Assembly (NCBI GenBank): GCA_035504415.1
Contig: DATJRY010000017.1
Span: 461,263 to 525,262, forward strand
Length of the DNA stretch: 64,000 nucleotides
Source: Candidatus Sulfotelmatobacter sp.
GTDB lineage: Bacteria > Vulcanimicrobiota > Vulcanimicrobiia > Vulcanimicrobiales > Vulcanimicrobiaceae
Direction of reading: 5' to 3'
The notes under the pieces were generated by a model that worked only from the letters and a program-made list of their open reading frames with translations, had not been told where the DNA came from and did no database searches. This document shows, piece after piece, positions 43,970-52,553 of this stretch (positions are counted from its first letter, which is position 1; each line of letters begins with the position of its first letter). A program made the translations under genes and the position numbers.

Positions 43970-43992
43970 TGGTAGCCCCAACGGGATTCGAA
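43970..43992 (-). repeat. att site: displaced 3' fragment of tRNA-Glu including CCA
   Basis: TAGCCCCAACGGGATTCGAA at 43973-43992 is identical to 50730-50749; this copy continues into CCA. Confidence 0.92.
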
Positions 43993-44223
43993 ACTGTTGG
44001 CTCTGTCCGCTTGAAACCGCTGGAGTCGAAAAACCGGCATTTTCCCGCGTGCGACGCCGACTGAGACCGCGGGAAAACGGCAGGCACCGGCAGAGTCGGT
44101 GACAACACGCGACCGACGACATCGCCGTCATTGTATCGGCTACCCGAGGCTTGCGACCTACGCGATGGTGCCGGCCAATGCCCTTCCCTTCGCCGATCCG
44201 CCACTCCGTGTGTCGTTCAGTGC

Positions 44224-44549
44224 ATGCTGCGCGAGATCGTCTTTACGCTCAGCGTCACCGGCCGCATCGTCCGCGAGGCCGAAGTCCAGACCGCAGGCAA
44301 CGTCACGCTCGCGCGAACGACCATCGCCAGCGACCGCTCGCGCAAGAAGACCGCCAAGGCCGATTTACTCGACGCCGTCGGCTTCGGCAACGTGGCGGGG
44401 CAACTCACCGCCCTTGCGAAGGGCGAGTTCGTCCGCATCACCAGAACGGTCCGTACCTGGTCGTATGACGACACGTCGGGCACCCGGCGCAAGAGTGCGC
44501 AAATCGTTCCCGCAAGGTCGAGCGCTACGCGCAGGAGGCAGCCGCGTAA
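44224..44549 (+). pseudogene. ssb: Single-stranded DNA-binding protein (OB fold), probably frameshifted near 44509
   Basis: TGRIVREAE...ADLLDAVGFG..A..L..LAKGEFV.I...V.TWSYDD.SG.RR...QIV. A one-base shift gives ..RKVERYAQEAAA* ending at 44549. Confidence 0.6.
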
Positions 44550-44696
44550 GCAGCGCCTCCGGCCCGTGGATTCGCGAAGTGTTCGTGTCGCTGGTTCGCT
44601 ACCTCGTCATCCGCACTGTCGCGCGGATGCTGCTCCGCCGGCGCCGCGATGATCACCGCGTGGCGGAGGTCCGGATTCGCTCGTCGCCGAGTTTGT

Positions 44697-45359
44697 CTAA
44701 GGTCGCTGCGTCCTCGGTACACTTCTGCGGAGAACGCTAAGGTTTGCCCGGATGCTCACGGCTCGAAGCCGGGCGCGCTCTCGGTGGAAGGTCCGCCACC
44801 GCTCCGCAATCGCCTCGTCTACGAACCGCCGTCCGATGCCACCGTCGTCGGACACCGTCTCGATTTTGTCGTAGCCGCCCACGGACCGGGCAAAGGCGTC
44901 CGCGATCTCGATGAACGTCGGTTCGTCGTGGTCCATGTGGCAGCCTTGGCGTCCTATGACTTCGCCCGTGACCGGGCAGATCAACGTTTCTGCGTCACCG
45001 AAGGCGCGATCACGAGCGGCAAGTTTCTGATCGAGCACGGCGTATCGCATGGCGCTTTGCACCTTTGCGCTTTGCGACGTCCCATAGAGGCACTGCATAA
45101 ACGAGAAGTCCGTCTCGCTTCCGTCGCTCCGCACGATCCAGAATCCGTCATTGTTGATGTTCCGGCGGACGTCGAAGTGATCAACCCCGTTCCCGACCTT
45201 CGTCTCGGCTTGCGGATGGAGAGCTAGAAGGTCTCGAAGAAACTCGTCGTCGCCGCCTAACGCTCGGCCCGCGACTTTGGTGCGCTCACGAACTTCGTAG
45301 ATCGTGGCCAGCGCCTCTTTCTTTGTGCGGAAGGCCCGTCCGCCGATTATGATCTCCAC
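44697..45359 (-). CDS. DUF3223 (DCL-like) domain protein with C-terminal HNH-like region
   Basis: FRTKKEA...DEFLRDLLALHP...KVGNGVDHF...FWIVRSDGSETDFSFMQCL, then CPVTG...HMDH..P...RANLS. Confidence 0.7.
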   Translation of the reverse strand: MEIIIGGRAFRTKKEALATIYEVRERTKVAGRALGGDDEFLRDLLALHPQAETKVGNGVDHFDVRRNINNDGFWIVRSDGSETDFSFMQCLYGTSQSAKVQSAMRYAVLDQKLAARDRAFGDAETLICPVTGEVIGRQGCHMDHDEPTFIEIADAFARSVGGYDKIETVSDDGGIGRRFVDEAIAERWRTFHRERARLRAVSIRANLSVLRRSVPRTQRP

Positions 45360-45365
45360 CGTTGG

Positions 45366-45929
45366 CTACCGCAAATTCGCATCGAGGTAGTGCGGGAGTG
45401 TTCTGACGGAGTTGATGACGAGCATCGCCTCCGCCGGTGCAAGAAGTGACACGTTGGGATGCGCCATACTCTGCTGGTTCCGGAGGGGATTCAGCGCGTC
45501 GACGATGGTAGCGAACGCCCGTCCGATCTTGTTCGTCTGCTCGCTGCTCTGCGCGACCGCGGGATGCCCTTTCAGTAGAACTTTCATGAGCGCGGTGATG
45601 TCGGCATCCGGCGCATACGCCAGATTGTGCTTGTCGGCTGCGACGCGCAGGTATGCATGCAGCGCGGTGTGGACGCGGTCGACGCCGCTCGTGGCGCAGG
45701 TGCAGGCAATCAGCGCCTCTGCGTCGGCGAGGGCGCGTTCGACCACGTCGCTGGTGATCGCAAGGTTCGGGGACTGGACATTCGTGAGGCCTTCGCTCGG
45801 ATCGAGTCCAATGGCGACGAAGCGCACGTAGCCGTCAGGAACGATTTCCGACACGGCCTTGGCGATCTGCTCGTACACCGCGAGCCGCGAAGGATTAACC
45901 TGCTCGCCCAGTTCGACGTACGTGTCCAT
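45366..45929 (-). CDS. Abortive-infection family protein (Abi_C domain), probably 5'-truncated
   Basis: SGVDRVHTALHAYL...LNPLRNQQSMAHPN..LL...EAMLVINSVRT (HEPN-like RxxxxxxH). In-frame DEFNVLYWRAP precedes the ATG, then the reading degenerates. Confidence 0.75.
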   Translation of the reverse strand: MDTYVELGEQVNPSRLAVYEQIAKAVSEIVPDGYVRFVAIGLDPSEGLTNVQSPNLAITSDVVERALADAEALIACTCATSGVDRVHTALHAYLRVAADKHNLAYAPDADITALMKVLLKGHPAVAQSSEQTNKIGRAFATIVDALNPLRNQQSMAHPNVSLLAPAEAMLVINSVRTLPHYLDANLR

Positions 45930-45960
45930 TGGCGCTCGCCAATACAGAACGTTGAACTCG

Positions 45961-46257
45961 TCACCTGACGTCGCCGGCCCTTCTCGAAGCCGTTTTCGTT
46001 CGCAGCAACGATCTCGTGCCGCGCGATGGCGCTTTCCAGTACGGCGCCGTCACGCCCGCTGCGAAAGTATGCCACACGATCTCCTTCGCGGGTTCGGGAA
46101 GGATCTTCCGGGCCTTGTCTTCTTTCGGGAAGGCGTAGCCCTCGACGACCTTGCGAGCGGCGTACGGTGAGGCGAGCATGAACTTGACCACGCCGCGAGC
46201 GCTCATCGAGAACGGTTTCGGGTCGCGCGCGCCGGGAAGGACCGTGAGGGTTGCCAT
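45961..46257 (-). pseudogene. Remnant of a hypothetical gene with an apparent 2-bp insertion
   Basis: GAGGG RBS plus MATLTVLPG...SARGVVKFM..SP.AARKVV..Y.FP. Protein-like reading continues in another frame after a GTGTG duplication. Confidence 0.35.
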
Positions 46258-46758
46258 CGCGCTCGCCCTCAGCGTTTCTAGGTCTGCCGGTCCGAGAGGA
46301 CCGATGCGGCGACCGCACTGCCGGGCTCTTGCCGGTGGCCAGCAACGACCCGGCGGTCGAAGCGACCTTGGCGCTCGTGTGAGCCACGGGGTTAAGCGCT
46401 CGCGGGCTCGTCCGGGTGTCTGACAGGGCTGCCCCGGCGATGCTGCGGACGTCGGGGTTCTTGCTCGTTTGGAGCAGCCGGCTCGCGATGCGGTCGATTC
46501 CCTGGTGGGTGTCCCCTCGGCAGCGCCTCTTGCCACGATAGCCTCCGGGAATAGACGTTCGGGGGAACGTGTGTTCAATAAACTAGCCGGTATGGCACGC
46601 CGTACAGCCGGTCAACAGGACCCGCCTAGAATATGGGCGGGCTGAGCGCCACCGTCCTGACACTCCTTCGCGGAAGTCAAGCGTGGGCGCTTTGGCGAAC
46701 GGCGCTGTGATGCGGGTGGCTCTGGCCTCGAGGCAGCGGCGCGGGAGGCGGCGACCGA

Positions 46759-48048
46759 ATGCTAATTACGCCGTTCTCTGATCAGCCGACCGATGCGCTG
46801 CGTACCGCGGTGAACAGCCTTCGTGCGGACCGCGAGAACGTGCAGCGCATTTGGATCTTCGATCCGGAACAGCGCCGGGACGACGATCCGTCGCCGCCTG
46901 CGATCTCGTTCGGCTCTGACTCCGGCCTGCGCTTCGTCGCGCCATTTGCGCCGGGCCGGCTGATGTATTTCGACGCGGTGACGCAAAAATATCGGCCTGC
47001 GAAGCGTCGTACTATCCTCGGGCTCGACTCGAACCTGTGTTCATTGCTCCGTGAAGTCTTCGTTCACGGTTCCGATGATCCGACGCGGACGCGGAGGGTC
47101 ATCGACCTTGCAAAGCACGCGCGCATTTGGCGCGCGGAAGTTCAGCCCATGCTATATCTGCGTGAACTCGTCCTCCGCCTACCCATAGCCGACCTGCGAA
47201 ACGACGCCGAAAAGGCAGTCGTGTCGATGTTCAAGATGCAGGCATTGCGGCCGCAATCGAGCGAGGGGGCGGGGCGGCTGATCTTCGATGAAGCCATACT
47301 CGACCACTTCGAAGAGCGCTTTGGTGTACGAACGTTCGAAGAGGCTGCGTCCAAGCAGGTCGACCTTATGCTGCAAAAAGGGGACGTCGGACACGCGCAC
47401 GATCACATCGTGATATATGCAGCGTTGCTCAAGATGATCGACGTCGGCCTTGCTATGAAACAGCGGCCGCTGGATGAGAGGCTCGCTGAAGTCGATGCGT
47501 TTATCGTGCGCGACTTGGCTTCTGTTCAACCGCGTCTCCATGTGCTGGCGCGTCTGTTCTTTTCTGGAACGCTGGCACGGCTATTAAAAATCACCGCGGG
47601 TAACCCGAATTTCGGCCGCAAGCACCTAATCGGCTCCTCGTACGACCTTTACTTGACGATCATTCATGAGAACTTCTTGGGTACTAGCGATGAACCGCCC
47701 GAGGCGTGGCTCTCGATCCTCTGCACGCTGGACGAAGGGCTGTCCAACTACGCAGGCCGCTTTCCGCTGGTGAGTCTCGCGGTCATGAACGATTACTCGT
47801 TCCGGATTGCCCATCAGTGGGATGATGCGTGGCTGAAGAATACGCTCGGCGTCGGGCGCTACGACGAGCTTGTGCGCTCAGTGAATGAACGCGTGCCATC
47901 GGTCAAGACCAGTTGGCTGACGGAGCGGACGATAGCAATGATTCGTGATATCGAAGCGCGGCTTGGCGTTACGGCTGAGCAGTCGCTTCTCGGCGACGCC
48001 ACGGCGCAATATATTATCGCCGGGACATCGTTCGGACGTCCAGCATAG
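46759..48048 (+). CDS. Hypothetical island protein (429 aa), weak PIN-like LDSN motif
   Basis: GGGAGG RBS, atypical codon usage, ILGLDSNLCS...YLRE...D acidic pattern. Confidence 0.75.
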   Translation: MLITPFSDQPTDALRTAVNSLRADRENVQRIWIFDPEQRRDDDPSPPAISFGSDSGLRFVAPFAPGRLMYFDAVTQKYRPAKRRTILGLDSNLCSLLREVFVHGSDDPTRTRRVIDLAKHARIWRAEVQPMLYLRELVLRLPIADLRNDAEKAVVSMFKMQALRPQSSEGAGRLIFDEAILDHFEERFGVRTFEEAASKQVDLMLQKGDVGHAHDHIVIYAALLKMIDVGLAMKQRPLDERLAEVDAFIVRDLASVQPRLHVLARLFFSGTLARLLKITAGNPNFGRKHLIGSSYDLYLTIIHENFLGTSDEPPEAWLSILCTLDEGLSNYAGRFPLVSLAVMNDYSFRIAHQWDDAWLKNTLGVGRYDELVRSVNERVPSVKTSWLTERTIAMIRDIEARLGVTAEQSLLGDATAQYIIAGTSFGRPA

Positions 48049-48078
48049 TAACCGCAGTACGACAGAGAGTACGAGCAT

Positions 48079-48246
48079 ATGCCCGAAAGCGAACAATCGA
48101 CAGAAGAAGCCCGGCTCAAATGCCCGGCACACTTATCGGATCCCCCGACCGTTCATTTCGAAAAACGCGGTGGGAAGTTGTACTGGGTTTGTGATGCGTT
48201 CGGCATGGTGCCGAAGCACCATGGGATTGTGAATCCAAAGGAGTAG
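48079..48246 (+). CDS. Small ORF (55 aa) with a zinc-ribbon-like CPAH...WVC...HH pattern
   Basis: Manual translation MPESEQSTEEARLKCPAHLSDPPTVHFEKRGGKLYWVCDAFGMVPKHHGIVNPKE*; below the ORF-track cutoff. Confidence 0.4.
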   Translation: MPESEQSTEEARLKCPAHLSDPPTVHFEKRGGKLYWVCDAFGMVPKHHGIVNPKE

Positions 48247-48285
48247 AAGTCCACGGCTTGCCCGCCACTTTAGACACGCATCAGC

Positions 48286-50241
48286 ATGACTGAGCCGAAC
48301 GCTGAAATTCCAGACGGTGTCGCGGTCGCCTTCGAAATATCGGGTGACCGCTCCCGGATAGGAATCACTAAGACGGAGAACGGGCGCTCGTACTGCGTAC
48401 CGATGGCGAAGCATCTCCTACGTGACGTTGCTGTCGAAGTTGATAGGGCGTCTGTCGTCGCGCTTGAAAGACTACAACCGGAGATAGAACCGCGTCAGAG
48501 CACAGCCAGTGATCCCGTGCGGGCCGCATTCGAACCGATCATTGAAGTTGCCGCAGGAACGGTGCTCGCCGAAGCCCTCAAGGATGACCCGACGCGGTAC
48601 CGCTTTTACCAGGTCGTGGAGGACGTCCTCCGCGCGTACAACGACCTCGAACGCGACAAGTCAGCGATAGTCCGCAGGTTCGACGTCCGGCACGGACCCT
48701 ATGGCGACCAGATTTCTCGTCGACATCGTGGGGGACGGCCGGTTCGGTCACTCGCCGGCTTGGCACAGCTCCAATACCGTGCGGTGCCGGACCGTTTTCT
48801 CAGCGTTCTTCGCATACCGATCATCACTGAATGGCAAGTCGAAGATATACCGGCAACCGCCGCCTTTCCGACGAAACGCATGGCGGGACTGGCTTCACTA
48901 GCGATCAGGGACGGGCGTGCGGAAGCGACCGTCAAAGCGCCGGAGCATCCGCTTTTTGTAGACGAGCCGTCAGGAATCGACGTGGCAGTCGTCTACCGCA
49001 AATTGGAGCACGGGGCCATTGCGCCGAGTACTCCTTCGACGCCTCTGTGGTCAGCGACAGATGCGCGCTATGTTGGCGGCTCTTTCGGGGGAAGTGACGC
49101 GGTCTTCCGTTTTATGGTACCCCGTGTCTCGTTAGCGTTTGGGGACGGAGATATTGCCGCAACGCGTGAAACTTTCCGCGGACTCACGCTGAAGGGGTTC
49201 GGGCACCGGATCATGCCCGAATACCCGACCGGGTTTGACCTTATGACGGCCCGGGATGCGTACATCGTGAATATCTACGGACGAGACGCCCGCATCGTTC
49301 AGTCAGGCGCGAACCACGTGTCGCTGATCCACGAAGGTGAGCCGCTGCAAGACAGCCAGGTTGACGATGTCCAGACCCTGATCCAATATCTATGCGGCAA
49401 TCGCGGGCAGCACATCACGACGGAAACGTTCGATGCGACTGGCCGCCTCACATATGAATTTAACGAGCGTAGCGGACCAACGGAGCGTGGACAGCCGCCG
49501 ATCCAACTCGACCACTGGACGACGACAACAAATTTAGTGGCGCCGCAATTCGAGGCGATGCTTTCCGCGATCAGGAGGCTGCGCGATAAGGCTCCCGTTA
49601 AGTTGGATGCAGCGTTTCATCATTATTTCGAAGGCGTGAACTCGTCGTATCCGGTCACGCGCATCTTGATGCTTGCAGTGGCGATTGATACGCTTGTGGC
49701 GCTTCAAATCGGAAATCAACGCCAGGCGAGCATTATTGATAATCGCATCTTCCAGCGGGCGATTAAGCCCATTCGTGCGGCCGTCGAGAGATCGCTCGCG
49801 GCCGAGTCCGTTCCGTCGGACAAAGCAACGAAGATCCTGAACAAGCTACAGTCGTTGAACAACGCGTCCGCAGCGCAGCGACAGAGGGACTTCTGGACGG
49901 ACCTTGGGATCAATCTCACGACGGAGGAAGCCGAGGTCCTGGAATCGCGGCACGAAGTTGTCCATGAAGGGCACGTCGGCTCGGAACGTACATCGGACGC
50001 TCTCTGGGACAACTATCGCCGAAGTGGTGTGCTCGCAAACCTCTTCAATCGCGCTATGCTCGCGCTGCTCGGGTGGAACGGGCCTTATCTGGATGCGACG
50101 GTGACGGACCGGCATGTCGAACTGCCGCTGCACGCGCCGCGTTCTGGCGAAAGCGCCGAGGCCGCGATACCGAGTGCCGATGTAAGCGAGCCTGCACAGT
50201 CCTCCTCCGATTCGAGGTCGCTGCCGGATCTCTGGCGGTGA
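48286..50241 (+). CDS. ApeA-like/HEPN domain protein, putative defence RNase
   Basis: C-terminal helical domain: AAFHHYFEG...RILMLAVAIDTL...SRHEVVHEG (Rx4H)...LFNRAMLALLG. Confidence 0.7.
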   Translation: MTEPNAEIPDGVAVAFEISGDRSRIGITKTENGRSYCVPMAKHLLRDVAVEVDRASVVALERLQPEIEPRQSTASDPVRAAFEPIIEVAAGTVLAEALKDDPTRYRFYQVVEDVLRAYNDLERDKSAIVRRFDVRHGPYGDQISRRHRGGRPVRSLAGLAQLQYRAVPDRFLSVLRIPIITEWQVEDIPATAAFPTKRMAGLASLAIRDGRAEATVKAPEHPLFVDEPSGIDVAVVYRKLEHGAIAPSTPSTPLWSATDARYVGGSFGGSDAVFRFMVPRVSLAFGDGDIAATRETFRGLTLKGFGHRIMPEYPTGFDLMTARDAYIVNIYGRDARIVQSGANHVSLIHEGEPLQDSQVDDVQTLIQYLCGNRGQHITTETFDATGRLTYEFNERSGPTERGQPPIQLDHWTTTTNLVAPQFEAMLSAIRRLRDKAPVKLDAAFHHYFEGVNSSYPVTRILMLAVAIDTLVALQIGNQRQASIIDNRIFQRAIKPIRAAVERSLAAESVPSDKATKILNKLQSLNNASAAQRQRDFWTDLGINLTTEEAEVLESRHEVVHEGHVGSERTSDALWDNYRRSGVLANLFNRAMLALLGWNGPYLDATVTDRHVELPLHAPRSGESAEAAIPSADVSEPAQSSSDSRSLPDLWR

Positions 50242-50638
50242 AGGCTGCTTCGTACGGATTATTGCCGTCGGTCCGATTTGTCGCCAGCAGATTGTTGCTG
50301 CCGTCGTACAGGTCGACGTAAGCGTTGTCGTTCCCGATGGGAGCGACAACCGGCCACGTGCATTCCGTGTCCGCGCCGACGACCGCGCACGGCGGATTCG
50401 TGCCGGTCGTGGTCACCGGGAGCGTGTCGGTTGCGTAGGGCGTCAGCGAGCCGTCGCCGTTGACGACCGAGATGGTCGCGACCGCGTACGAAGTCCAGGG
50501 TGAAATCCACTGCGGGCGACGACTGTGGGCGTTCGCCGCCGTCGCGCGGGGCGGGATGATGACCTGGAGTTTGCCGGCCACGACGGGGCCCGGAAGCGAA
50601 GACGGTTCGGCTTGCCGAGACGCGCCGAGGAGCGTCAA
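50242..50638 (-). pseudogene. Truncated fragment of a secreted/lipoprotein family gene
   Basis: RRPQWISPWTS...PPC....TECTWPVVAPIGNDN.YVDLYDGSNNLLAT. The protein-like reading stops at the HEPN gene's 3' end, and no signal peptide or start is evident. Confidence 0.5.
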
Positions 50639-50661
50639 AATCGCGTAGACCTGCGGGATAG

Positions 50662-50720
50662 GTGACTAAAATGTGACTAAATCGGACCCTGGAAATGGAA
50701 AAACCCTTGTAAAACAAGGA
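50662..50720. repeat. Candidate integrase arm-type sites next to the att site
   Basis: GTGACTAAA direct repeat (50662-50670, 50673-50681) and CCTTGT-AAA-ACAAGG inverted repeat (50705-50719). Confidence 0.5.
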
Positions 50721-50729
50721 TTTCCCAAA

Positions 50730-50802
50730 TAGCCCCAACGGGATTCGAACCCGTGTTACCGCCGTGAGAGGGCGGCGTCCTAGGCCTCTAGACGATAGGG
50801 CC
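50730..50802 (-). tRNA. tRNA-Glu (anticodon CTC), no encoded CCA
   Basis: GGCCCTA acceptor stem, anticodon arm CCGCC-CT-CTC-AC-GGCGG, GGTTCGAATCC T-loop. Confidence 0.96.
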
Positions 50803-50804
50803 GT

Positions 50805-50878
50805 TGGCTCCCGGTCATGGATTCGAACCACGATGACCTCGTCCAGAGCGAGGCATGCTACCGTTGCATCAACCGGGA
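50805..50878 (-). tRNA. tRNA-Gln (anticodon CTG), CCA encoded
   Basis: TCCCGGT/ACCGGGA acceptor stem, CCTCG-CT-CTG-GA-CGAGG anticodon arm, GTTCGAATC T-loop, GCCA end. Confidence 0.96.
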
Positions 50879-51433
50879 TTGCTCGATTGTCGATTTGCGT
50901 CGGCGCGGGTTCCTGCCCGCGAAGGTCTCCGTTTGGATGTGGCAGTTCGGGCAGAGCATCCGGAGATTTTCCAACCGGTGGTCGTCCCGAACGCCGTTTC
51001 GATGATCGATTTGGATGGCCAGGGGCTTCCCCCTCCAGCTGTCCAGGCCGCATTCATCGCAGACGTTCCTGAGTATACCAGCCTGGATCAAGCGCCTTTT
51101 GATGGAGCCCCGGTAGCGGCTCCGGGCCAGGACCTCCTCGACGGTCCAGCTCCGGGGACGCGGCCGCACGCTCCCCCGGCGGACCGCCTTGGTCCAGGCC
51201 ATCAGCGTGAAGCCGAACCGCTGGCAGCAGTCACGGACCGAGTGGCCGGCATCGTAGTACTGCTGCACGGCAGACCAATCGTAGCGTGTCGGCACCGTCG
51301 CGGCGCGAAGGCGCCCCCGCCGGATCGCCTTGTACCAAGCTGCCAGTTGGAATCCGAAGCGCTCGCGGCACGCGTCCCGATCGTGGCCGGCATCGTAGTA
51401 TGCTTGCACGGCAGCCCAATCGTGTGTGCGCAT
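50858..51433 (-). CDS. HNH endonuclease with two N-terminal 47-aa repeats
   Basis: CDECG...IQIDHRNG...RLENLRMLCPNCH; repeat DW.AVQ.YYDAGH...C..RFGF...AW.KA.RRG occurs twice. Start MRTHDW at 51433. Confidence 0.9.
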   Translation of the reverse strand: MRTHDWAAVQAYYDAGHDRDACRERFGFQLAAWYKAIRRGRLRAATVPTRYDWSAVQQYYDAGHSVRDCCQRFGFTLMAWTKAVRRGSVRPRPRSWTVEEVLARSRYRGSIKRRLIQAGILRNVCDECGLDSWRGKPLAIQIDHRNGVRDDHRLENLRMLCPNCHIQTETFAGRNPRRRKSTIEQSRLMQR

Positions 51434-51485
51434 GTTGCCAATGTAGCGGAGGGACGTGCCACCGGGGTGGCACGAACCTAACGTC

Positions 51486-52553
51486 GTGCAAGCAATCGTC
51501 CTCGTCGGCGGTGAGGGAACGCGGCTCCGCCCGCTCACGCTCGAGACCCCGAAGCCCATGGTCCCGGTCATGAACATGCCCTTCCTCGAACGTACGCTGC
51601 GGCGGTTGAAGGACGCGGGCATCGAGGACGTCATCTTGCCGGCCGGCTATCTCCCGGACGCGATCACCTCATTTTTCGGCGACGGCTCGGCGCTCGGACT
51701 GCGCGTCCGCTACGTGATCGAAGAAACGCCGCTCGGCACCGCCGGCGCCCTCAAGAACGTCGCGCAATACATCGACGGCCCGTTCTTCGTCCTCAACGGC
51801 GACGTGCTCACCTCGCTCGACCTGCGCGCGATGATGCAGTATCACCGGCAGAAGGGCGGCGTCGCGACGCTGCATCTGATCCGCGTCGAGGATCCCAGCG
51901 CCTTCGGCTGCGTCGTTCATGACGATCAGGGCCGCATCTCGGCCTTCGTCGAGAAGCCGCCGCGCGACGAAGCGCCGACGAACGAGGTCAACGCCGGCAC
52001 CTACTTGCTCGAACCCGAGGTCCTCGACCGCATCCCCGCCGGTCGCCCGGTCTCGATCGAGCGCGAGACCTTCCCGGCGCTGATCGCCGCCGGTCGCCCC
52101 CTCTACGCCTATACGACCGACGACTATTGGATCGATCTCGGCCGCCCCGAGGCGTATCTCGCGGCCCATCGCCACGTCTTCGACGGGGCGATGCCGCTGG
52201 GCTTGGCGCCCGACGTCGACGGGCCGGGCCGCGAGACCGTTCCCCGCTCGGCGCTGCGCCCGCCGGTCTTCGTCGGCCGCGACTGCCGGGTCGCCGCCGA
52301 CGCGGTGGTCGGGCCCTACGCGGTGCTCGGCGACCGCTGCCAGGTCGGCTCGGGTGCGACGGTCGCCGACTCGCTGTTATGGGACGACGTCATCGTCGAA
52401 GCGGGCGCGCAGATCGATTGGTCGATCGTCGCCAGTCGCGCGCGCATCGGTGCGGGCGCGCGCGTGGAGCGTGGTGCCGTGATCGGCCATGGTGCAACCA
52501 TTGCACCCGGTTCCTTGGTAGAGACGAACGCCCGGGTCGCCGTCGAGCCCTGA
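51486..52553 (+). CDS. NDP-sugar synthase (mannose-1-phosphate guanylyltransferase-like)
   Basis: QAIVLVGGEGTRLRPLT..TPKPM, PLGTAGA, LNGD, FVEKP, C-terminal left-handed beta-helix repeats. Confidence 0.92.
   Translation: MQAIVLVGGEGTRLRPLTLETPKPMVPVMNMPFLERTLRRLKDAGIEDVILPAGYLPDAITSFFGDGSALGLRVRYVIEETPLGTAGALKNVAQYIDGPFFVLNGDVLTSLDLRAMMQYHRQKGGVATLHLIRVEDPSAFGCVVHDDQGRISAFVEKPPRDEAPTNEVNAGTYLLEPEVLDRIPAGRPVSIERETFPALIAAGRPLYAYTTDDYWIDLGRPEAYLAAHRHVFDGAMPLGLAPDVDGPGRETVPRSALRPPVFVGRDCRVAADAVVGPYAVLGDRCQVGSGATVADSLLWDDVIVEAGAQIDWSIVASRARIGAGARVERGAVIGHGATIAPGSLVETNARVAVEP

Follow-up and report, generated by a model that had tools for sequence, protein, structure and literature searches.

A phage-type HNH nuclease gene in the leader of a tRNA-Gln/tRNA-Glu operon of Eremiobacterota, a probable homing-type cassette

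Introduction

Two ways of persistence are commonly accepted for homing endonucleases: they reside in self-splicing introns and inteins, or their genes stand free in the genomes of phages. I-Ssp6803I, a homing enzyme of the PD-(D/E)XK type, belongs to the group I intron of the Synechocystis tRNA-fMet gene, and its natural target is a tRNA gene. Among the free-standing enzymes, SegB of phage T4 is located in a tRNA cluster, recognises T-psi-C-region sequence of a tRNA gene, and is transmitted jointly with adjacent tRNA markers by co-conversion (PMC2330249). No paper on chromosomal nuclease genes that run into or abut tRNA genes in the phylum Eremiobacterota was found in our literature search.

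In this study, we analysed a nuclease gene and two tRNA genes of a soil bacterium from this phylum within a window of 64,000 nucleotides, i.e. the whole stretch of DNA under analysis, together with the corresponding loci of its relatives. Our main reading, to which we assign a probability of about 0.6, is that a free-standing, phage-type HNH gene resembling those of homing endonucleases occupies the 5' leader of the tRNA-Gln/tRNA-Glu operon and forms one cassette with tRNA-Gln.

Results

The tRNA genes and the nuclease gene are all encoded on the minus strand. The genes for tRNA-Gln(CTG) (50805-50878) and tRNA-Glu(CTC) (50730-50802) were identified by ARAGORN and Rfam, and the Rfam search of the locus matched these two tRNAs and nothing else. 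The HNH nuclease gene (50858-51433) encodes a protein of 191 aa in which the zinc-HNH motif is complete; it starts with ATG at 51433-51431 and stops with TAG at 50860-50858. This stop codon occupies positions 19-21 of tRNA-Gln, so that 21 nt are common to the ORF and the tRNA, and the first 21 nt of tRNA-Gln thus read as the last six HNH codons plus the stop. On the other side, 52 bp separate the HNH start from the GTG at 51486 of a divergent nucleotidyl-transferase gene on the plus strand (51486-52553), which is similar to mannose-1-phosphate guanylyltransferase and forms the left flank of the cassette. Both the overlap and the short divergent spacer had been described in an earlier note on this DNA, made from the sequence alone, and both were confirmed. 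A hairpin with a U-rich tail follows tRNA-Glu (50696-50727, minus strand; -14.1 kcal/mol, z = -3.51) and is the likely terminator of the operon. It was missed by a simple consensus scan of positions 50500-51800, which reported no sigma-70 promoters and no terminators; the promoters at this locus have no canonical -35 element.

As judged from its sequence, the HNH gene product is an intact nuclease under purifying selection, with a bipartite HTH region and a zinc-HNH domain. Two three-helix HTH repeats are located at the N-terminus and the zinc-HNH domain at the C-terminus. Little or no variation among 44 relatives is seen at residues C125, C128, D143, H144, N156, C161, C164 and H165, and the catalytic DH, Asn and His together with two CxxC pairs of zinc ligands assign the protein to the HNH (beta-beta-alpha-Me) superfamily. 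Scores against the Pfam models lie just under the cut-offs, with 20.3 bits against 21.4 for HNH and 21.7 against 24.8 for HNH_3. The PADLOC 'HEase' model (PDLC03673) was matched at 3.4e-15, and the PHROG HNH families phrog_10822 and phrog_14736 are among the matches (E = 5e-27 and 1e-20), which bears out the proposal of the earlier note that this is a free-standing nuclease of the homing type. The AlphaFold2 model (pLDDT 87.6) displays the beta-beta-alpha HNH fold, with strands at 141-144 and 157-160 followed by a helix at 162-166, and the two 3-helix HTH repeats. This fold matched the HNH domains of McrA, Cap5, Gme HNH and I-HmuI as well as HTHs of the paired and transposase-like types, and a sequence search of solved structures returned a marginal match to the HNH domain of McrA and nothing more. 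Identity with ZorE of Zorya type II was rejected, as the match reached 24.3 bits against an NCBIfam cut-off of 600 and covered the HNH motif alone.

Upstream of the HNH gene lies a composite promoter/operator. Its upstream half is the 18-bp core, GTGCC-N8-GGCAC (51456-51473, minus strand), of a perfect palindrome, CGTGCCAC-N4-GTGGCACG (51455-51474, minus strand; folding z = -4.65). The -10-like hexamer TACATT (51440-51445, minus strand) follows the core after 10 nt; exactly 6 nt lie between it and the ATG, and a Shine-Dalgarno sequence is absent. The palindrome and the hexamer were likewise read correctly in the earlier note. The layout of 18-bp palindrome, 10 nt, TAnnnT, 6 nt and start codon is kept in relatives, where the hexamer appears as TAAGCT, TACGCT or TAGGCT at a fixed distance of 6 nt from an ATG or GTG start. 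The same spacing as in TACATT-GGCAAC-ATG occurs in three other genes of the genome as well. From the conserved TAnnnT-N6-start arrangement and the missing Shine-Dalgarno sequence, the HNH mRNA is very probably leaderless, as had been suggested.

The composite motif, consisting of the palindrome core, 10 nt and TAnnnT, is found in 8 copies genome-wide, one of them at recA, and is common to recA, phosphoesterase genes and other nuclease genes. It is specific in spacing: the 8 copies all have N8 between the arms, and no copy was found in the genome with N6, N7, N9 or N10. Such spacing specificity, like the conserved promoter layout and the ORF-tRNA junction kept in relatives, goes beyond what chance would give. 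The bare palindrome is not enriched genome-wide, with 11 matches compared with 6-24 for other spacings. These observations suggest that the HNH gene is transcribed from a specialised promoter of its own, controlled by the palindrome, into a leaderless message. Two other assignments were tried for the palindrome and rejected. It is not the LexA box, since the SOS box of this genome is CGAAC-N4-GTTCG, located before recA, lexA and many other promoters; a copy of TGCC-N8-GGCA near lexA falls within a small leader ORF. The right arm reads TGGCAC as in a sigma-54 promoter, but the GC element is absent at the required spacing.

The tRNA genes of alleles without the nuclease have a promoter of a different kind. 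In the empty alleles of four congeneric species, a textbook promoter, TTGTCA-17-TATCAT, lies about 35 nt before tRNA-Gln, and other families have the proximal tRNA promoter TTGCAA-18-TAGTAT. The former is absent from the HNH-bearing allele analysed here. An invariant DNA block, CTTGATCCAGGCTGGTATACT (51072-51092, minus strand), was detected within the HNH coding sequence by codon-level conservation: only five of the 46 amino-acid-invariant columns are also codon-invariant, and four of these five cluster in the block, which uses the rare codons TTG, GCT, GGT and ATA. The extended -10 motif TGGTATACT (51072-51080, minus strand), about 190 nt upstream of tRNA-Gln, is codon-invariant across 13 diverged relatives and is also kept in five decayed HNH copies. 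One clade has TGGTATAAT in its place, at the same codon positions. The internal motif and the proximal tRNA promoter are mutually exclusive (26 versus 28, none with both; Fisher p = 2e-6), where shared ancestry is not fully corrected for in this test, nor in the Mantel and AU tests given below. The internal motif has no -35 element; the same promoter style is seen at other tRNA operons of the genome, for example TGGTACGAT before tRNA-Pro. Alleles of clade B contain no equally clear internal promoter, only the partly conserved TGTACCAT. Taken together, TGGTATACT is probably the promoter of the tRNA-Gln/tRNA-Glu operon, lying inside the HNH coding sequence.

This bears on the account of the locus given in the earlier note, in which the nuclease gene sits behind a strong native tRNA promoter that it colonised, and a single transcript beginning at the HNH ATG supplies the tRNAs without any separate tRNA promoter. 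The conserved TAnnnT-N6-ATG geometry accords with such a transcript, there is neither room for a promoter nor a terminator between the ORF and tRNA-Gln, and the stop codon is transcribed only if the HNH promoter reads through. We nevertheless consider this account unlikely. Neither of the native promoters, TTGTCA-17-TATCAT or the TTGCAA-18-TAGTAT of other families, is present here; the promoter that does precede the HNH gene belongs to the palindrome-dependent class common to recA; and TGGTATACT survives in decayed copies and never occurs with a proximal promoter. The claim of a colonised strong tRNA promoter thus finds no support, and the claim that the tRNA precursor begins with the HNH mRNA gives way to a probable tRNA promoter within the gene, an outcome that the note itself had counted against its model; there, TGGTATACT is strongly constrained as DNA.

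The HNH gene is present in 32 of the 61 relatives. The earlier note had called for a search for empty alleles, and these were found with conserved flanks in four species of the genus (G017, G035, G005 and G004), in addition to at least five copies decayed in place (listed for G007, G012, G013, G025, G027 and G034). Intact, decayed and empty alleles therefore occur at one site, which is the pattern of invasion, decay and loss expected of homing endonucleases. The overlap or abutment of ORF and tRNA is maintained within the genus: among 23 intact relatives with 55-77% identity, the ORF ends at tRNA position 8, 13 or 19, or 2-12 nt short of the tRNA. The tRNA-Gln(CTG) gene, usually followed by tRNA-Glu(CTC), is located no more than 70 nt away, in the same orientation, at 29 of 30 loci of the genus and 72 of 78 loci of the phylum, and a nucleotidyl-transferase homologue lies divergently upstream of the HNH gene at 70 of 76 loci phylum-wide. 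The order of divergent nucleotidyl-transferase, HNH, tRNA-Gln and tRNA-Glu is conserved across Eremiobacterota. A recent colonisation, as implied by the earlier note, does not agree with such an ancient, phylum-wide linkage (72/78 loci), and since the arrangement is ancient and syntenic, much of the history of the HNH gene could be vertical.

Exchange of alleles is indicated by several comparisons. The degree of HNH identity shows no correlation with that of the flank (r = 0.09), and the HNH tree is incongruent with the left-flank tree, in which the flank gene alone stands in for the species tree. The alleles of G034 and G009 are 93-100% identical from the flank through the promoter to nucleotide 40 of the HNH gene and drop to 45-75% thereafter, which places a recombination breakpoint within the 5' end of the gene. 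Monophyly of the HNH alleles of the genus was rejected by the AU test (p = 0.019), for a group that was named after viewing the tree. The incongruent trees and the mosaic alleles point to horizontal spread, while host labels form significant clusters on this tree, with 7 changes versus 18.6 in shuffles of the labels on the HNH tree. An island of about 6.8 kb is located downstream of the operon, bounded by a 22-nt att repeat of the tRNA-Glu 3' end; its distal copy (43973-43994, minus strand) matches at 21 of 22 nt. The sequence downstream of tRNA-Glu is unrelated in every genome pair compared, which marks the site as an island hot-spot, and turnover of islands could therefore produce mosaic alleles without a break made by the HNH nuclease.

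The tRNA-Gln(CTG) at this locus is the only real copy in the genome. Within the genus, 24 distinct tRNA-Gln sequences were found at 31 loci, with a mean identity of 73%, compared with 98% for the essentially invariant tRNA-Glu. Distances between tRNA-Gln sequences correlate with those between HNH genes (Mantel r = 0.48, p = 0.0002), whereas those between flanks show no such correlation (r = -0.17). The tRNA-Gln of HNH-bearing alleles is 66-89% identical to that of the empty allele, and all four empty alleles of the genus have an identical tRNA-Gln. Co-variation with the HNH gene, together with an invariant tRNA-Gln where the gene is missing, is compatible with co-conversion and immunity. In an HNH-less allele from a different family, tRNA-Gln is 83% identical to the empty allele; tRNA-Gln also differs between HNH-less genera, so that part of its variability is independent of the nuclease. 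We infer that tRNA-Gln moves with the HNH gene as one evolutionary cassette, next to an invariant tRNA-Glu, and the gene seems to behave like a selfish cassette carrying its own variant tRNA.

Two further nuclease-tRNA pairs were found in the host genome. The earlier note had proposed counting paralogues next to other tRNAs; the association with other tRNAs was indeed recovered, but the genes involved are from unrelated families, and no paralogue of the same HNH family was found in the host genome. In the first pair, a PD-(D/E)XK gene (PF11645, E = 2.9e-37), preceded by the promoter cassette known from the HNH gene, runs into tRNA-Thr(GGT), overlapping its first 10 nt, and this tRNA-Thr is again the only real copy in the genome. 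The family adjoins tRNA-Thr(GGT) at 27 of 27 loci, with the palindrome at 22 of them, and the adjacent tRNA-Thr is hypervariable (23 distinct sequences at 27 loci); five genomes without the nuclease share an identical canonical tRNA-Thr. The allele of the host genome adjoins a canonical tRNA-Thr as well, which is awkward for a simple rule of resistant variants. In the second pair, a zinc-ribbon HNH gene with the same promoter cassette precedes tRNA-His, and loci of its family are found before tRNA-His or tRNA-Pro. Three unrelated nuclease families therefore adjoin tRNA genes, and the single-copy tRNA-Gln(CTG) and tRNA-Thr(GGT) differ by 10-35% within the genus, with compensated stems, which is unusual. 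These nuclease genes are most likely free-standing homing-type cassettes that target tRNA genes.

That the nucleotidyl-transferase gene and the tRNAs accompany the HNH gene phylum-wide would also be expected of a domesticated repair or recombination nuclease of a damage regulon, inherited vertically and evolving fast, whose position beside the tRNAs is synteny without functional meaning. Such a nuclease would equally fit with the promoter motif common to recA and phosphoesterase genes, the conserved catalytic residues and the clustering of HNH tree labels by host group. It is difficult to reconcile with a gene that many high-quality genomes of the genus lack or carry as a decayed copy, that contains a recombination breakpoint, and whose alleles in the genus are not monophyletic. 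Moreover, all three unrelated nuclease families adjoin tRNA genes, and hypervariability of the adjacent tRNA is confined to loci that have the nuclease. We regard domestication as improbable, to about the same degree as the single transcript discussed above. That the HNH gene is part of the tRNA-Glu mobile island, or a ZorE-like anti-phage nuclease delivered with it, is very improbable, because, even with that island and its 22-nt repeat directly downstream and some weak matches to the ZorE HNH, the gene lies outside the att repeats on the far side of both tRNAs, stays linked to the left flank whereas each genome has its own island content, and scores 24 bits against the cut-off of 600 over the HNH motif alone.

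Discussion

The homing-type cassette that we favour would work as follows. The HNH mRNA would be produced without a leader from its own promoter, composed of the 18-bp palindrome, 10 nt and TACATT. This promoter class is common to recA and two tRNA-abutting nucleases, and HNH expression is therefore probably tied to the state of DNA damage or recombination, which would act through a putative factor. The native proximal tRNA promoter would have been lost, leaving the tRNAs to be transcribed from the embedded TGGTATACT and by read-through from the HNH promoter. With the tRNA promoter embedded in the HNH gene, deletion of the gene would silence the tRNAs, and the cassette would thereby be protected. 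The nuclease is predicted to cut the tRNA-Gln region of alleles unlike its own; repair from the donor would then copy the HNH gene along with its resistant tRNA-Gln variant, a form of intron-less homing or 'cleave and rescue'. Such a process would explain both the diversification of the tRNA and the mosaic alleles. Given the position of the stop codon within the tRNA, an HNH message of full length has to extend into tRNA-Gln, and processing by RNase P would be expected to leave a non-stop HNH message. This non-stop message is probably a by-product of compaction, which would also keep nuclease levels low.

A broader and more tentative reading, to which we give somewhat less than even odds, extends this to a guild of at least three nuclease families at tRNA 5' ends in Eremiobacterota, with a joint recA-linked promoter, embedded tRNA promoters and an arms race over tRNAs. 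Its members would be the double-HTH HNH with tRNA-Gln, the PD-(D/E)XK nuclease with tRNA-Thr, and the zinc-ribbon HNH with tRNA-His or tRNA-Pro. A single type of palindromic promoter, common to them all, would activate them at the same time as recA, and each would hold its tRNA hostage by means of a tRNA promoter in its own coding sequence. The compensated, fast diversification of essential single-copy tRNAs would then reflect a contest between nuclease specificity and target sequence.

The locus points to a third harbour for homing endonucleases, the tRNA operon leader, within a phylum of free-living bacteria. RNase P processing would make insertion into the leader harmless, and the embedded tRNA promoter would hinder loss of the gene. 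If the nuclease does cut tRNA genes, the occurrence of variable single-copy tRNAs beside an invariant tRNA-Glu would be explained. These loci also offer a lead to natural nucleases whose specificities for tRNA genes are apparently fast-evolving and, for a phylum that is almost uncultured, a candidate class of promoters linked to recA. Caution is needed in annotation, where pipelines will shorten such ORFs at the tRNA or flag the overlaps.

Comparison with the described systems shows which features are shared. The nuclease module is homologous to that of phage HNH endonucleases and the PADLOC HEase, with two CxxC ligands and the DH...N...H catalytic residues, whereas the double HTH, in which YDWxAVQxYYDxGH...RFGF...W.KA.RRG occurs twice, is specific to this Eremiobacterota family. 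The PD-(D/E)XK cassette belongs to the same Pfam family as I-Ssp6803I (PF11645, E = 2.9e-37); however, I-Ssp6803I is encoded within an intron of the anticodon loop, and the gene found here is free-standing, upstream of an intron-less tRNA-Thr. A close parallel is provided by the free-standing homing endonucleases of T-even phages (Seg, MobE), known for 'intron-less homing'; here too a free-standing nuclease is situated among tRNA genes. Polymorphism for presence or absence of the gene is common to both, and co-conversion of the flanks and immunity through a polymorphic target site may be so as well, with cleavage a prediction in the present case. SegB is a GIY-YIG enzyme of a phage genome, whereas the nucleases described here are of the HNH and PD-(D/E)XK types and reside in a bacterial chromosome. 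Unlike at SegB, the ORF enters the mature tRNA and a candidate tRNA promoter lies within the nuclease gene, and the association spans a whole phylum.

Organization of the nuclease locus

The HNH ORF of 191 aa was translated on the minus strand from an ATG at 51433-51431 to a TAG at 50860-50858, and is followed on this strand by tRNA-Gln(CTG) at 50805-50878 and tRNA-Glu(CTC) at 50730-50802, both identified by ARAGORN and Rfam. The stop codon occupies positions 19-21 of tRNA-Gln, and the final 21 nt of the ORF are the initial 21 nt of the tRNA. A -10-like TACATT (51445-51440, minus strand) is located exactly 6 nt upstream of the ATG, with no Shine-Dalgarno sequence, and a perfect palindrome, CGTGCCAC-N4-GTGGCACG, lies at 51474-51455 of the minus strand (folding z = -4.65). 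The divergent nucleotidyl-transferase gene starts with a GTG at 51486 on the plus strand, leaving 52 bp between both starts. The overlap, the -10 element without RBS, the palindrome and the 52-bp gap had all been described in an earlier note and were confirmed at the same positions. The geometry gives good support to the prediction that the HNH mRNA is leaderless. Folding analysis places a hairpin and a U-rich tail after tRNA-Glu.

The intergenic region (51434-51485) measures only 52 bp in the genome of the window (G000) and its closest relative (G023). Other species have a TACAAT-type leaderless promoter and a GAAGCCTGCC block ahead of the transferase gene, both missing from these two genomes. 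In G000 the palindrome may work in both directions, transferase gene included.

The C-terminal third of the protein contains all elements of a zinc-HNH signature (CxxC, DH, N, CxxCH), with these residues invariant or nearly so among 44 relatives, and two copies of a three-helix HTH make up the N-terminal half. Scores to Pfam HNH models fall slightly below the cut-offs; clear matches were obtained with the phage HNH family phrog_10822 (5e-27) and with PADLOC's 'homing endonuclease' model (3.4e-15). The AlphaFold2 model (pLDDT 87.6) resembles the HNH domains of McrA, Cap5 and I-HmuI as well as paired-domain or transposase-type double HTHs. The gene is single copy in G000 and is under purifying selection, since synonymous sites are free to vary in many columns whose amino acid is invariant.

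Distribution

Homologues with 55-77% identity were found in 32 of the 61 related genomes, several with stop codons or frameshifts. Among loci not cut by a contig end, the gene immediately precedes tRNA-Gln(CTG)-tRNA-Glu(CTC), in the same orientation, in 29 of 30. In the best 80 loci of the species collection, tRNA-Gln is at most 70 nt from HNH in 72 of 78 judgeable cases and 450-620 nt away, beyond a second tandem HNH copy, in five more; the left neighbour is the divergent transferase gene in 70 of 76. The arrangement is therefore ancient and phylum-wide, which speaks against a recent colonisation. Much of the history of the locus could be vertical.

The named relatives are all MAGs of Eremiobacterota (WPS-2, equivalent to Vulcanimicrobiota), save a few bins with other labels. 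Typical transferase-HNH-tRNA-Gln contigs appear under foreign names at six loci (L066, L083, L085, L101, L106 and L133), labelled Limnocylindrales, 'uncultured proteobacterium', Alphaproteobacteria, Rhodospirillales or Acidiferrales. Faulty binning or labelling probably accounts for these names, although actual transfer may be involved. Tandem double HNH genes precede tRNA-Gln at L096, L109, L120, L126 and L136, a second, decayed copy follows tRNA-Glu in some genomes (L016/L056, G026), and in one MAG (G003) HNH-tRNA-Gln-tRNA-Glu occurs at two separate loci whose alleles differ (L022 and L039). Such multiple copies may denote repeated invasion or strain mixture.

Promoter class of the nuclease

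In relatives, the start codon (ATG or GTG) is preceded by GTGCC-N8-GGCAC, 10 nt, TAnnnT (mostly TAAGCT) and exactly 6 nt; the window palindrome has the same 18-bp core plus one extra pair per side. By itself, the palindrome shows no enrichment in the G000 genome. The composite TGCC-N8-GGCA, 9-11 nt, TAnnnT occurs at eight sites, seven with a 10-nt gap, and at none with N6, N7, N9 or N10. The sites (contig:position) are C3:68866 (recA), C3:48278, C6:160828, C7:261, C7:254345, C12:169713, C15:86893 and C17:512734, the last being window 51456-51473. The genes concerned are recA, a 51-aa zinc-ribbon ORF, several nuclease or phosphoesterase-like genes, the window HNH and a second nuclease gene (PF11645), and sites also lie beside SOS-type cassettes. 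The composite motif may mark a regulon distinct from that of LexA. The palindrome was ruled out as a LexA box, which is the classical CGAAC-N4-GTTCG in G000. We read the palindrome as the putative site of a factor replacing -35 recognition. LexA-independent damage promoters are found in actinobacteria, and by analogy the palindrome promoter may act like them.

Upstream of lexA itself (L159-L176) lie a classical CGAAC-N4-GTTTG SOS box and a short leaderless ORF, MATVTGVAADGSVAERYAYWVAFC... (G000 C11:101270-101400, L154). The DNA of this ORF holds an (A/G)TGCC-N8-GGCA(T/C) palindrome conserved in 15 of 15 genus genomes examined.

Promoters of the tRNAs

A search of relatives for empty alleles, as the earlier note had advised, revealed them in four species of the genus (G017, G035, G005 and G004), with flanks as in the window and 155-200 bp from the transferase start to tRNA-Gln. 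Their promoter is a textbook GGGGGCTTGTCAAC-N17-TATCAT about 35 nt upstream of tRNA-Gln, and in a neighbouring HNH-less family the promoter is TTGACC-17-TATAAT. Distant HNH-bearing families possess a canonical TTGCAA-N18-TAGTAT 14-16 nt upstream of tRNA-Gln, overlapping the 3' end of the ORF, which often takes its stop codon from the TAG of this -10 element. In the genus of the window this proximal promoter is absent and the ORF reaches or enters tRNA-Gln, with stops at tRNA position 8, 13 or 19, or 2-12 nt before the tRNA. The proposal that HNH colonised a strong tRNA promoter is not borne out, the promoter of the empty alleles having been lost here.

Codon constraint was compared among 13 intact window-type alleles with DNA identity of 58-76%. 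Of 46 degenerate columns that are amino-acid-invariant, just five are codon-invariant, and four of these are adjacent: TTG, GCT, GGT and ATA, all disfavoured codons in a genome of 66% G+C. Together they spell CTTGATCnAGGCTGGTATACT, containing an extended -10 motif, TGn-TATACT, which precedes tRNA-Gln by 181-225 nt and is at 51072-51080 in the window. The motif is kept in five copies with decayed reading frame, TGGTATAAT is found at the same codons in another clade, and the tRNA-Pro operon of G000 has a similar promoter, TGGTACGAT. Over all loci, the internal motif is present in 26, the proximal promoter in 28 and both in none (Fisher p = 2e-6, uncorrected for ancestry). These patterns suggest, with a probability of roughly 70%, that the internal motif is the promoter of tRNA-Gln and tRNA-Glu, in which case deleting the HNH gene would silence both tRNAs. 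The earlier note held that the tRNA precursor probably begins with the HNH mRNA; the internal motif, as a probable tRNA promoter inside the HNH gene, speaks against this. A single upstream promoter serving HNH and tRNAs alike is unlikely given the codon-level conservation of the motif.

Further nuclease-tRNA cassettes

The search for nucleases next to other tRNAs, also proposed earlier, yielded two more pairs in G000, from unrelated families. The first is a PD-(D/E)XK nuclease of 162 aa (C15:86892-87483; locus L179:1461-2052) matching PF11645 (E = 2.9e-37), the family of I-Ssp6803I. Its promoter consists of palindrome, 10 nt, TACGCT, 6 nt and ATG, and its TAG stop is positions 8-10 of tRNA-Thr(GGT). 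It was found in 25 of 36 genus genomes and not outside the genus, adjoining tRNA-Thr(GGT) in 27 of 27 loci, 22 of them with the palindrome. The adjoining tRNA-Thr has 23 distinct sequences in the 27 loci, with a compensated anticodon stem differing in almost every species, while five nuclease-less genus genomes share one identical tRNA-Thr that is 82-88% identical to those of other families (Mann-Whitney p = 0.001, uncorrected for ancestry). As a point of caution, the allele of G000 itself adjoins the canonical tRNA-Thr.

The second is a zinc-ribbon HNH of 148 aa (C10:182590-183172; locus L237:690-1272; phrog_2255, 1.6e-25), with the same promoter cassette in the form ATGCC-N8-GGCAT, 10 nt, GACAAT, 5 nt and ATG. 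It ends 19 nt upstream of tRNA-His(GTG) within a Pro-Arg-His-Lys-Lys tRNA cluster, and its final codons include a TTGCGC-N18-TACGAT promoter. Its relatives, patchy and including decayed copies, lie before tRNA-His or tRNA-Pro(TGG) of this cluster. The best evidence that these nucleases adjoin tRNAs for a functional reason, and not by accident, is that three unrelated families converge on one architecture.

Evidence for movement of HNH together with tRNA-Gln

Pairwise HNH identity is unrelated to that of the left-flank transferase gene (r = 0.09); flank pairs at 94-95% identity carry HNH proteins merely 54-59% identical, and the two trees disagree. Between G034 and G009, identity is 93-100% over the flank gene, intergenic region, HNH promoter and initial 40 nt of the ORF, falls to 45-75% over the remaining HNH sequence and the 5' half of tRNA-Gln, then rises again at tRNA-Glu; the same trough is seen in other genome pairs. 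A tree of 66 sequences places genus alleles in at least two strongly separated positions, and the AU test rejects their monophyly (p = 0.019, for a group named after the tree was seen).

Across the genus, tRNA-Glu has a mean identity of 98%, and tRNA-Gln one of 73% (minimum 52%). The 31 loci have 24 distinct tRNA-Gln sequences, which show compensated changes in the stems of the D, anticodon and T arms. Apart from the window copy, G000 has no real tRNA-Gln(CTG) gene. All four empty alleles have one identical tRNA-Gln, to which those of HNH-bearing alleles are 66-89% identical and an HNH-less one of a different family 83%; tRNA-Gln differs between HNH-less genera too. Its distance tracks HNH distance (Mantel r = 0.48, p = 0.0002, uncorrected for ancestry) and not flank distance (r = -0.17). 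Since tRNA-Gln follows HNH and not the flank, the unit of inheritance is promoter, HNH and tRNA-Gln.

Beyond tRNA-Glu, no pair of related genomes that was compared shares related sequence. In the window, an island of lower G+C and about 6.8 kb (43973-50751) extends from a 21/22-nt repeat at 43973-43994 to the 3' end of tRNA-Glu, and in several relatives 25-nt repeats of this 3' end lie kilobases from the gene. Within the genus, tRNA-Glu(CTC) thus appears to be a general integration hot-spot, and recombination driven by islands beyond it could therefore yield mosaics without any nuclease-made break.

Proposed mechanism and comparison with known systems

Intron-less homing is the most likely mechanism of the HNH-tRNA-Gln cassette, by analogy with phage systems. 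The nuclease, expressed from a leaderless promoter of the type linked to recA, would cut tRNA-Gln regions differing from its own, and repair would copy the cassette with its resistant tRNA variant. RNase P would take off the coding leader and leave the tRNA unharmed, and the promoter embedded in HNH would penalise deletion of the gene. In the window allele, this cleavage would also take away the HNH stop codon, which may limit HNH expression. We regard the removal as a tolerated by-product of compaction, because in relatives the ORF may stop short of the tRNA, at its edge or within it. That the gene is solely a domesticated repair nuclease, for which the conserved catalytic residues and the promoter shared with recA could speak, is improbable beside the decayed copies and the variability of tRNA-Gln where HNH is present.

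We found no description in the literature of chromosomal, phylum-wide cassettes with ORFs running into tRNA genes, of a tRNA promoter embedded in a nuclease gene, of a nuclease promoter class common to recA, or of measurable hypervariability of the tRNA adjoining a nuclease. Homing endonucleases encoded by free-standing genes, and their association with tRNA clusters of phages, are already known. SegB of phage T4, encoded within a cluster of tRNAs, recognises the sequence of tRNA genes and carries neighbouring tRNA markers along (PMC2330249), and the pattern of the window cassette matches this intron-less homing of T-even phages.
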